DNA of 64,000 nucleotides, from the NCBI GenBank assembly GCA_965198065.1, contig CBDAON010000004.1:2656001-2720000 (forward strand), written 5' to 3'. Made by a program: the position numbers and the translations under genes. Numbering within the stretch: the first letter of the stretch is position 1; each line of letters starts with the position of its first letter. The DNA is from Longimicrobiales bacterium. GTDB lineage: Bacteria > Gemmatimonadota > Gemmatimonadetes > Longimicrobiales > Gaopeijiaceae. The notes below the pieces were generated by a model that saw only the letters and a program-made list of their open reading frames with translations, was not told the DNA's origin and ran no database searches. Of the stretch, positions 26,379 to 28,404 are shown piece by piece.

Positions 26379-27246
26379 CGACCAAGGATATTCTCCAGCC
26401 CAGGGAAGCCTTGGCGTGATGTACGACAATGGTTACGGCGTCCCCGAAGATGACGCTGAAGCCCTACGCTTGTATCGGCTTTCCGCCGCACAGGGGTTCG
26501 CTGCCGCTGAGTACAACCTTGGCGTGATGTACGACAATGGCGAGGGCGTCCCCGAAGACGATGGGGAGGCCGCACGCTGGTATCGGCTTTCCGCCGAGCA
26601 GGGGTTCGCTGCCGCTGAGTACAACCTTGGCGTGATGTACGACAATGGCGAGGGCGTCCCCGAAGACGATGGGGAGGCCGTACGCTGGTACCGGCTTTCC
26701 GCCCAGCACGGGTTTGCCGCTGCTCAGCACAACCTCGGCGTGATGTACGACGATGGCAACGGCGTCCCCGAAGACGATGGGGAGGCCGTACGCTGGTATC
26801 GGATGGCTGCGGAGCAAGGGTACGTGATCGCCCAGTTCACACTTGGGGTGATGTATAGCGGGGGTGAAGGCGTCCCCGAGGACGAAGCCGAAGCTGTACG
26901 CTGGTATGGATTGGCGGCTGAGCAGGGAGATGCTCTAGCCCAGACCAACCTTGGGGTCATTCTCGCTCAGCGCTGGTATCGGTATCAGTTGCAGGGTACG
27001 CTGGGGGATGCTCTGGCCGAGGTTGACTTCGGATTGGTCCAGCAGGACCTAGTCCTCGCCTTCATGTGGTTCACGCTCGCCGCAGCGCAAGGAAACGAAA
27101 CTGCGGAAACGAACAAGGGCAGAATCGAGGAGTGGCTGACTCCCGATGAGATCACCGAGGCCCAAAGGCTGTCCCAGGAGTGGATAGACACCCACCCCCA
27201 GGACGGGGGCGAGCCGTCGGAGACAATCCGAACTCCAAGTTGTTAG
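26379..27246 (+). pseudogene. Sel1-like repeat protein, 5'-truncated
   Basis: Five 36-aa/108-bp repeats (AEYNLGVMYDNGEGVPEDDGEAxRWYRLSAEQG) plus one degenerate repeat and the typical LAFMWFTLAAAQG tail. Confidence 0.9.
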
Positions 27247-28205
27247 CAACTGTGTGCGAACTCAAGCTCTGAAGCGTGGGTGGGGTCCCAGGATACGCCG
27301 TCTCGAACCATAGCGTTGGCGATCACAAGCAACTTACGCATGCAGGCGGTGAGGGCGACTTTCGGAGGCTTGCCACGTTCTGTGAGCCGCTGGTAGAAGA
27401 CGCGGATCGCGGGATTACGCTGACTAGCGGTCAGGGCCGCCATGTACAACGCCACGCGTACGGAACGACGGCCTCCCCAGACCATTCGCTTACCTCTCAA
27501 CGTACCCGAGTCCCGGTTCAGAGGGGCGACGCCGGCAAGCGCAGCGATCTGTTGCCGGTTCAGCTGCCCGAGCTCGGGGAGCTCTCCGATCAGCGTGCGT
27601 GAGACGAGCGGACCGATCCCCGGTACGCTCCGCAGCAGATCCTCCTTCGCGCGCCACACCGGGCTCGCCTTGATACGACGCTCGAGTTCCGAGTCCACGG
27701 ACTTCAGCTTGCGCTTGAGCCACTCGATGTGCTCGCCGATGTCCTTCGCCACCGTGGTGGACGCCATCTTCAGCCGGTTCTTCTCCGCGACCATCATCTC
27801 GAGCAGTTGACGACGACGGGCCAGAAGGGCCGTTAACTGCTGGGTGTCCTCGTCCGGCAGCACCCGCACCTCTGGCCGCACCCGCTCGCCGAACAGCGCC
27901 AATACCCTCGCGTCGATCCGGTCCGTCTTGGCGAGCTGGCCCGTTGCCCGTGCGAAGTCGCGCACCTGCCGCGGGTTCGCTACCACCACCGGGATCCCCG
28001 CTTCGGCGAGTGCCGCCGCCGCCGGCATCTCGTACCCGCCGGTCGCTTCCAGAACGACTAGCTCAACCGGACGGTCGCACAGCTGCTCAACAAGCACTTC
28101 GATCCCAGATTCGTCGTTCGAGACCGTCCACCCCTCGTCTTCTACCGCCACCTCGAGCTCCGCCTTTGAGACATCGATCCCTACGTACGCCTCGGCCTCA
28201 GACAT
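27243..28205 (-). CDS. IS110-family recombinase/transposase (RuvC-like DEDD plus Tnp domain)
   Basis: [36 protein letters not shown]. Confidence 0.96.
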
Positions 28206-28404
28206 CCCTCTCTCCAGACTCGGGAGGATGATCGTGCATCGTCCTACCTTGCAGATCCGGGCTCCCTCGGCCCCAACAACTGTTCGGACTCATCACGATC
28301 TAGAAGGGACGGCGCCCACGCTAACAATCGGTCTCTAGGACCCTAGGCGGGACGGGCTACCGACCCTGTGTACCCAAGAAACTACCTATTCGTCGTCATA
28401 CAAG
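27245..28404 (-). mobile_element. IS110-family element (IS621-like, upstream non-coding region), CT core at both ends
   Basis: Minus-strand left end CT|TGTAT and right end ACAGTTG|CT; no terminal IRs. Confidence 0.9.
28220..28385 (-). ncRNA. Predicted IS110 bridge RNA (ends approximate)
   Basis: Contains, in order, segments matching left target, right target (revcomp), left donor and right donor (revcomp); see finding. Confidence 0.8.

Follow-up and report, generated by a model that had tools for sequence, protein, structure and literature searches.

A 1,160-bp IS110-family insertion sequence of a Longimicrobiales bacterium with a predicted bridge RNA of the IS621 type

Among described systems, the insertion sequence IS621 of Escherichia coli (Durrant 2024, PMC11208160; Hiraizumi 2024, PMC11208158) offers the fullest comparison for the element reported here. 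Its recombinase has 326 residues with a composite active site of D11, E60, D102, D105 and S241, and its 177-nt RNA places the target loop at nt 34–98 and the donor loop at nt 110–177 and carries a conserved flipped-out A and a syn G (PMC11208158). In the bridge RNA the 5′ guides are identical to the top strand and the 3′ guides complementary to it (PMC11208160); the 3′ side pairs with the top strand and every pairing includes the core (PMC11208160, Durrant 2024). Once strands have been exchanged, the two bases that follow each 3′ guide pair with position 7 (and 6) of the non-cognate DNA, and pairing of these bases with the cognate DNA has to be avoided (PMC11208158). Elements of the IS110 group have a long left end, whereas those of the IS1111 group have a short left end and a long right end with the RNA (PMC11208160, Extended Data Fig. 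10 legend). Here we describe an element in a 64,000-nt stretch (the window) of contig CBDAON010000004.1 of a Longimicrobiales bacterium (GCA_965198065.1), of the phylum Gemmatimonadota; a literature search found no paper pairing bridge RNA with Gemmatimonadota. Window positions 27245–28404 (minus strand) very probably constitute a complete 1,160-bp IS110-family insertion sequence, whose gene for a 320-aa DEDD/serine recombinase is preceded by a conserved two-loop RNA predicted to be a bridge RNA of the IS621 type. Like IS621, the element is likely to move through recombination guided by RNA.

The likeness to IS621 extends from the protein to the predicted RNA. Both elements share the same two protein domains, a catalytic D-E-D-D and S-G set, a CT core, a long left end and a 5′ hairpin; compared by nucleotide positions, the two RNA loops lie at 38–100 and 105–175 here, close to the 34–98 and 110–177 of IS621. 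As in IS621, the 5′ guides follow the top strand, the 3′ guides complement it and are followed by bases that fit position 7 of the non-cognate DNA. An earlier note on this DNA, made from the sequence alone, had proposed the IS621-type order of left target guide (LTG), right target guide (RTG), left donor guide (LDG) and right donor guide (RDG), and the published description of IS621 (Durrant 2024; Hiraizumi 2024) is matched here in protein domains and catalytic residues, in the long left end with its two-loop RNA, and in the order and strand sense of the guides. The two elements differ in that the proteins are distant by sequence (E 5.9e-41), the target here is CC(G/A)C-CT-(A/G)AC(A/G)A, about four left-target positions show preference as against seven guide positions in IS621, and the stop codon straddles the right junction. 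The best solved-structure match is the ISCro4 transposase (9t56; E 1.4e-41, residues 6–310), in a comparison of the proteins. Elements of the IS1111 group, which use a seekRNA, belong to the same protein family but have a short left end and carry the RNA in a long right end, whereas here the left end has 199 nt and nothing at the right end is non-coding. We considered and rejected membership of the IS1111 group: the open reading frame (ORF) extends to the right junction, and matches to a covariance model of the RNA core (R1, described below) lie upstream only. The 320-aa enzyme, which the earlier note called compact, is of ordinary size for the group given the 326 aa of IS621, and novelty is lower than that note implied because NCBIfam already names the family 'IS110 family RNA-guided transposase'.

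Limits, copies and recombinase

On the minus strand, from 28404 to 27245, the element reads CT-TGTATGACG ... CACACAGTTG-CT, with one copy of the CT core at each end (left, 28403–28404; right, 27245–27246). The left target flank CGTCCAC (28405–28411) and the right target flank AACAA (27240–27244) give the junctions CGTCCAC-CT and CT-AACAA, and the element's own ends are CT-TGTAT... and ...ACAGTTG-CT; flanks and ends thus read exactly as the target CGTCCAC-CT-AACAA and donor ACAGTTG-CT-TGTAT that had been reconstructed beforehand. The window's own genome (G000; four contigs, 3.05 Mb, 87.6% complete) contains three copies, namely the full window copy, L002, which is the 5′ part of the element with its left junction, and L003/L004, which is the 3′ part with the right junction and an internal duplication. 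A scan with one genome per species turned up 134 relatives, from which 80 loci were kept. Sixteen copies at 99% identity occur in metagenome-assembled genome (MAG) records, 13 in one Longimicrobiales bacterium record set and three in another; 15 of them match element positions 1(2)–1160 and differ beyond, and L018 lacks the first 98 nt. Metagenome contigs from DNA runs start at 27245 in three of four runs and stop at 28405 in two of four, and in these four runs the word depth inside the element was roughly 4 to 250 times that outside, where several different sequences continue outward. Because the near-identical copies and the contig breaks agree on them, we consider the boundaries 27245 and 28404 correct; together with the full ORF and its catalytic residues, they bear out the intact IS110 element first noted at this place.

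The junction set for this one element comprises 17 left and 18 right junctions (window, L002/L003 and L005–L020, with L018 lacking a left end). A two-base CT core without any longer duplication was observed, with CT at 16 of 17 left and all 18 right junctions; the exception, L015, has TT or an extra T in its left core. The window copy and L002 lack one base behind 28377, in the 5′ stem-loop and outside both guide loops, which L005–L020 possess; by depth in the DNA runs, the base is present in about 30–45% in X1 and X6 and in all in X3 and X5.

The recombinase gene (27243–28205, minus strand) starts with an ATG at 28205 and encodes 320 aa. It leaves a non-coding left end of 199 nt (28206–28404), a region free of the element's ORF, as against 0 nt of non-coding sequence at the right end, where the ORF extends to the junction and its stop codon, TAA, is made of the core T and two flank bases. 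The protein matches PF01548 (DEDD_Tnp_IS110, RuvC-like DEDD; 9.9e-25) and PF02371 (Transposase_20; 6.4e-19) and passes the NCBIfam equivalog NF033542, 'IS110 family RNA-guided transposase', with 232.4 bits against a cut-off of 140. Matches to solved structures over residues 6–310 include, besides 9t56, IS621 itself (8wt6, E 5.9e-41), and residues D11, E53, D95, D98 and S233-G234 align opposite D11, E60, D102, D105 and S241-G242 of IS621.

At all 18 sites the stop codon consists of the core T and the first two target bases (TAA 13, TGA 5). In sister elements at off-consensus sites, with a right flank starting AT or CA (L021, L023 and L070), the frame reads 46–112 nt into host DNA, and a second subclade has its stop 12–18 nt before the core (39 of 67 distinct sites). 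In the excised circle the recombinase would be five residues longer. One idea, which we regard as improbable, is that the guide-specified target closes the recombinase frame and the C-terminus reports whether the element is integrated, excised or mis-inserted, which could tune activity.

Guide segments, RNA modules and insertion sites

Folding of the 199-nt left end and a consensus with five relatives gave the same order of a 5′ hairpin, a loop-1 module and a loop-2 module, with the guide segments on the predicted sides of two modules of stem, internal loop and hairpin. All features of the predicted RNA lie on the minus strand. The 5′ stem-loop (nt 3–36 of the left end; 28369–28402) comes from an RNAalifold consensus of six sequences, and the conserved core of the predicted bridge RNA, to which R1 corresponds, spans 28227–28369 (168.9 bits; its helices co-vary). 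The predicted target-binding module (nt 38–100; 28305–28367) includes helices 1 and 2, in which 93% and 98% of cells are paired, and the predicted donor-binding module (nt 105–175; 28230–28300) includes helices 3, 4 and 7, at 90–98%. All four segments named by the earlier note were found at their stated places. On the 5′ side of loop 1 lies the LTG (DNA GTCCCGCCT, RNA GUCCCGCCU; 28345–28353), whose site-fitting part is CCGC plus CU (28345–28350); anchored at the core of the window's left target, it is identical at −4, −3 and −1, forms a G.T wobble at −2 and does not fit at −7 to −5, in line with the partial match with one wobble noted before. On the 3′ side of loop 1 lies the RTG, UUGUUAG (DNA TTGTTAG; 28321–28327), to whose positions the right flank AACAA is exactly complementary. 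The 5′ side of loop 2 carries the LDG, ACAGUUG (DNA ACAGTTG; 28277–28283), the same sequence as the 7 nt that lead up to the right CT and followed by UU opposite the core (28275–28283 in all), and the 3′ side carries the RDG, UGCAAG (DNA TGCAAG; 28248–28253), which complements CTTGTA with one G.T wobble. Each guide is preceded by AGNCCG (AGCCCG, AGACCG, AGUCCG and AGCCCG at nt 47, 71, 115 and 142), a motif that by analogy may correspond to the conserved flipped-out A and syn G of the IS621 RNA.

The bases that follow the two 3′ guides also resemble those of IS621. Placed by analogy with IS621 positions 81–82, the predicted loop-1 handshake guide CG (28319–28320) would find pairing partners in donor G7 and T6 but none in target C7 and A6, and the putative loop-2 handshake guide GU (28246–28247) would match target C7 and A/G6 but neither G7 nor T6 of the donor. 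On this presumed mapping, C85 fits donor G7 and G158 fits target C7. In L058 and L081, A replaces the first loop-2 handshake base and a T stands at target position 7; L017 departs from this, with A and C7. CG and GU may act as handshake guides.

The junction set provides a natural record of the sites used with one guide pair. On the left, C occupies position −4 in 14 of 17 sites, −3 in 10 of 17 and −1 in 16 of 17, and −2 is G in 10 and A in 4 of 17. On the right (18 sites), +1 is A in 13 and G in 5, +2 is always A, +3 is C in 16, +4 is A in 12, G in 5 and T in 1, +5 is A in 17 and +6 is G in 11. From these counts the natural target is CC(G/A)C-CT-(A/G)AC(A/G)A, as expected from pairing with CCGCCU and UUGUUAG. 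Pairing is complete from +1 to +5 at 16 of the 18 right sites (Watson-Crick only at 8) and from −4 to −1 at 8 of the 17 left sites (Watson-Crick only at 4), as against a background of full pairing of 2.0%, left or right each, among the 345,746 CT sites of G000. Insertion of other copies at sites unrelated to the guides would have refuted the reading of the earlier note; checked against these flanks, that condition did not refute it. Target variation is mostly A/G opposite guide G or U, as RNA-DNA pairing that allows wobble would predict. Positions −7 to −5 are without preference, and therefore the first three bases of the 9-mer LTG seem not to count.

Several single sites deserve mention. The left core of L015 lies at 1299–1302, and two paralogues of its site in G000 are uninterrupted (...CCGTC-CT-AATGAAAGG...). 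L015 is the sole one of the 16 foreign copies with both flanks close together in G000, where the unoccupied site has no gap (...CCGTC-CT-AATGAA...); we rejected it as the same site and regard it as a diverged paralogue. A contig of run X6 (27049–27246; depth 14.5; 6 other letters in 198) follows the right flank to the core and then continues with other sequence starting GCGG. In element orientation it reads ...CCGC-CT-AACAA, a perfect target, and a 14-nt word of the contig is absent from G000. This contig may be an unoccupied site in another strain, in which case the window's present left flank would not be the element's original neighbour. In L052, L053 and L069 (about 1262–1300), a full copy has as its left flank the opening segment of the left end of a second copy. 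This segment stops exactly at the second copy's left target guide and CT in L052 and L053, and immediately behind the second copy's right target guide in L069; the element seems to use its own guide-coding DNA as a pseudo-target.

Conservation of the RNA and of guide-flank agreement in orthologues

R1 covers nt 36–178, was built from six sequences and was run on 69 sources, among which L005 and L017 are the only ones of the 16 near-identical copies. It matched 67 of the 69, always on the gene strand and directly upstream of the gene; the two misses, L003 and L030 (at a contig start), lack a left end. In 47 distinct alignment rows, 91.4% of cells were paired as against 76.0% in shuffles (0 of 500), compensatory changes on both sides were found in 29 of 38 pairs as against 19.9 in shuffles (0 of 500), and slid controls reached 36–50% paired. 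A single helix lacks support (52.7% paired), and it falls within loop 2, whose guides should be unpaired.

Related proteins include those of the ISMno7 family of Methylobacterium nodulans plasmids (52.9% identity) and of an E. coli IncF plasmid element that belongs to the IS110 family (48.9%), both over 95–98% of length, and R1 matches just upstream of each (48.4 bits, E 6.7e-10, and 42.2 bits, E 1.4e-8, respectively), although these elements come from different phyla and have different loop-1 sequences. The Rfam family sX15 (RF02234) matches the strand opposite the bridge RNA (window 28228–28376, plus strand) with 26.1 bits, below the threshold of 55. In turn, R1 matches the Xanthomonas plasmid pXCV183 on the minus strand at record positions 116384–116524 (L103 1885–2025; 34.2 bits, E 5.9e-7), the place given for sX15 and the complementary asX7 (PMC3300014). 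No IS110 gene follows at this sX15 locus, and no paper linking sX15 to IS110 was found in a literature search. One possibility is that the sX15/asX7 locus is what remains of the left end of an IS110-family element; asX7 would then be on the strand of the bridge RNA.

The two loops behave differently among orthologues. The end sequences CT-TGTAT and ACAGTTG-CT are conserved in nearly all of them and loop 2 is nearly invariant, whereas loop 1 is variable and follows the flanks. Thus the L071 family has UCAUUCU with TCATT-CT and CGCUCAG with CT-GAGCG, L051 has ACCCUAG with CT-AGGGT, L060 has GGGGUCAG with CT-GACCCC, and L056 has GUGCCCCU with GTGCC-CCT. Among the closest relatives, left guide and left flank change jointly in L021 (CCAU with CCAT) and L023 (CCGU with CCGT). 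At the donor side of L024, an A to G change at the tip of the left end occurs together with U to C in the right donor guide. The left guides of L022 and L024 fit their single left flanks poorly. A core-anchored contiguous match was scored at 58 left and 56 right sites, after 8 left and 10 right sites were dropped for want of a recognisable end. The mean match run, core included, was 5.1 for cognate and 3.0 for non-cognate pairs on the left (36 distinct guides) and 6.45 and 3.47 on the right (30 distinct guides), and in neither case did any of 5,000 permutations reach the observed mean. These permutation figures overstate the significance because related elements are not independent, but the direction is clear.

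Proposed movement, alternatives and significance

If the element works as IS621 does, it would be excised as a circle joining ...ACAGTTG-CT-TGTAT..., and its left end would give rise to the RNA. The donor junction would be held by loop 2 (ACAGUUG.. and UGCAAG) and the target CC(G/A)C-CT-(A/G)AC(A/G)A by loop 1 (CCGCCU and UUGUUAG), a recombinase tetramer would swap strands at CT via a phosphoserine link at S233, and the two bases after each 3′ guide (CG and GU) may help strand exchange as handshake guides. Contigs from RNA libraries (four runs, three studies) comprise pieces within 27510–28405, which take in the non-coding left end and the 5′ half of the gene, with none on 27245–27509 or on the flanks; such contigs reveal neither the strand nor the ends of a transcript, and the libraries may contain DNA. 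In the joined circle only, a −35-like TTGAGT in the right end (27260–27265, minus strand) would lie 17 nt from TATGAC (28395–28400).

A number of observations weigh against this interpretation. The circle junction, as computed, gives TTGAGT-17-TATGAC, a weak match at only 8 of 12 sigma-70-like positions, and a promoter and terminator scan of the integrated copy found neither a sigma-70-like promoter nor a terminator. The single-sequence fold energy of the left end is no better than that of shuffles (z 0.53), a search of the element RNA against Rfam 15 gave no match to a bridge-RNA family, and the helix counts come from an alignment fitted to R1, which favours structure. The left guide fits weakly, with no preference at −7 to −5 and a mismatch within −4 to −1 in 9 of 17 left flanks, and the window's own left flank (CCAC) is a wobble case. 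Neither an empty site of the window insertion nor a circle junction was found in 41 relatives, where a search with 500 nt from each side gave weak partial matches only. Contigs of the four DNA runs gave no circle junction and no joint across the element, which carries little weight as contigs drop rare forms. Finally, the host genome has only one full and two truncated copies.

Some of these observations are shared by the alternative that survives best, namely that the window copy is a bridge-RNA element by descent and intact in sequence but has become a silent relic that no longer moves in its host genome. We consider this unlikely, although a real possibility. It would account for the low copy number in a 3.05-Mb assembly, for the base missing from the 5′ stem-loop relative to most copies, for a left flank that fits the guide only via wobble and for the lack of a circle or empty-site contig, but rare circles are invisible in contigs, and the ORF is full-length with all catalytic residues kept. 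The perfect target CCGCCTAACAA was not found by a motif search of G000, as might be expected of a relic, but the relaxed target motif occurs 14 times there. Moreover, the guides and helices are the same as in the 16 copies of the two related MAG records, which have spread to different sites there.

Very unlikely, in our view, is that the conserved upstream structure is a mere leader through which the recombinase mRNA is regulated in its translation or stability, while the protein chooses the site. The structure does stop about 20 nt before the ribosome-binding site, and RNA-library contigs do run from the non-coding region into the gene, though without strand or ends, but a leader role predicts neither the change of orthologue loops with the flanks while helices stay, nor target variation that is mostly A/G opposite guide U or G, nor the repeat of the element's own ends in loop 2, and is disfavoured for these reasons. 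Chance similarity in a GC-rich non-coding region can be dismissed as the explanation of the four guide matches, short (6–9 nt) though the matched words are and partial as the left-target match is, given that both exact 7-mers appeared in the right order in only 7 of 200,000 composition-matched first-order Markov shuffles of the region, that 18 other junctions agree and that the orthologue permutation tests gave 0 of 5,000.

The IS621-type reading is thus the one that we retain for this element, whose surroundings also bear on its effect on the host. Its right junction falls at the stop codon of a Sel1-repeat ORF (26314–27246, plus strand; Pfam Sel1, 1.5e-58), and the Sel1-repeat protein is unchanged by the insertion because the TAG of this ORF uses the core. 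Further out, the window has a patchwork of mobile DNA (25923–26300 and 29187–30200), with an IS3-type OrfA (HTH_Tnp_1, 1.5e-18), a phage-integrase fragment (8.7e-07) and a second OrfA-like ORF. The truncated copy L002 is cut at element position 834 by sequence that, by eye, is like the reverse strand of an IS3-type end, similar to window ~25923–26100.

The known mechanism is unchanged by this element, which is an ordinary member of a known group. What it adds is a natural bridge-RNA element from an uncultured lineage (Longimicrobiales) and an unusually clean natural record, in which 18 junctions for one guide pair are joined by dozens of orthologues with guides that track their sites. This record shows which guide positions count in nature, about four on the left and five on the right in addition to the core, with G.U/G.T wobble tolerated, and it supplies a set of orthologues for bridge-recombinase screening.

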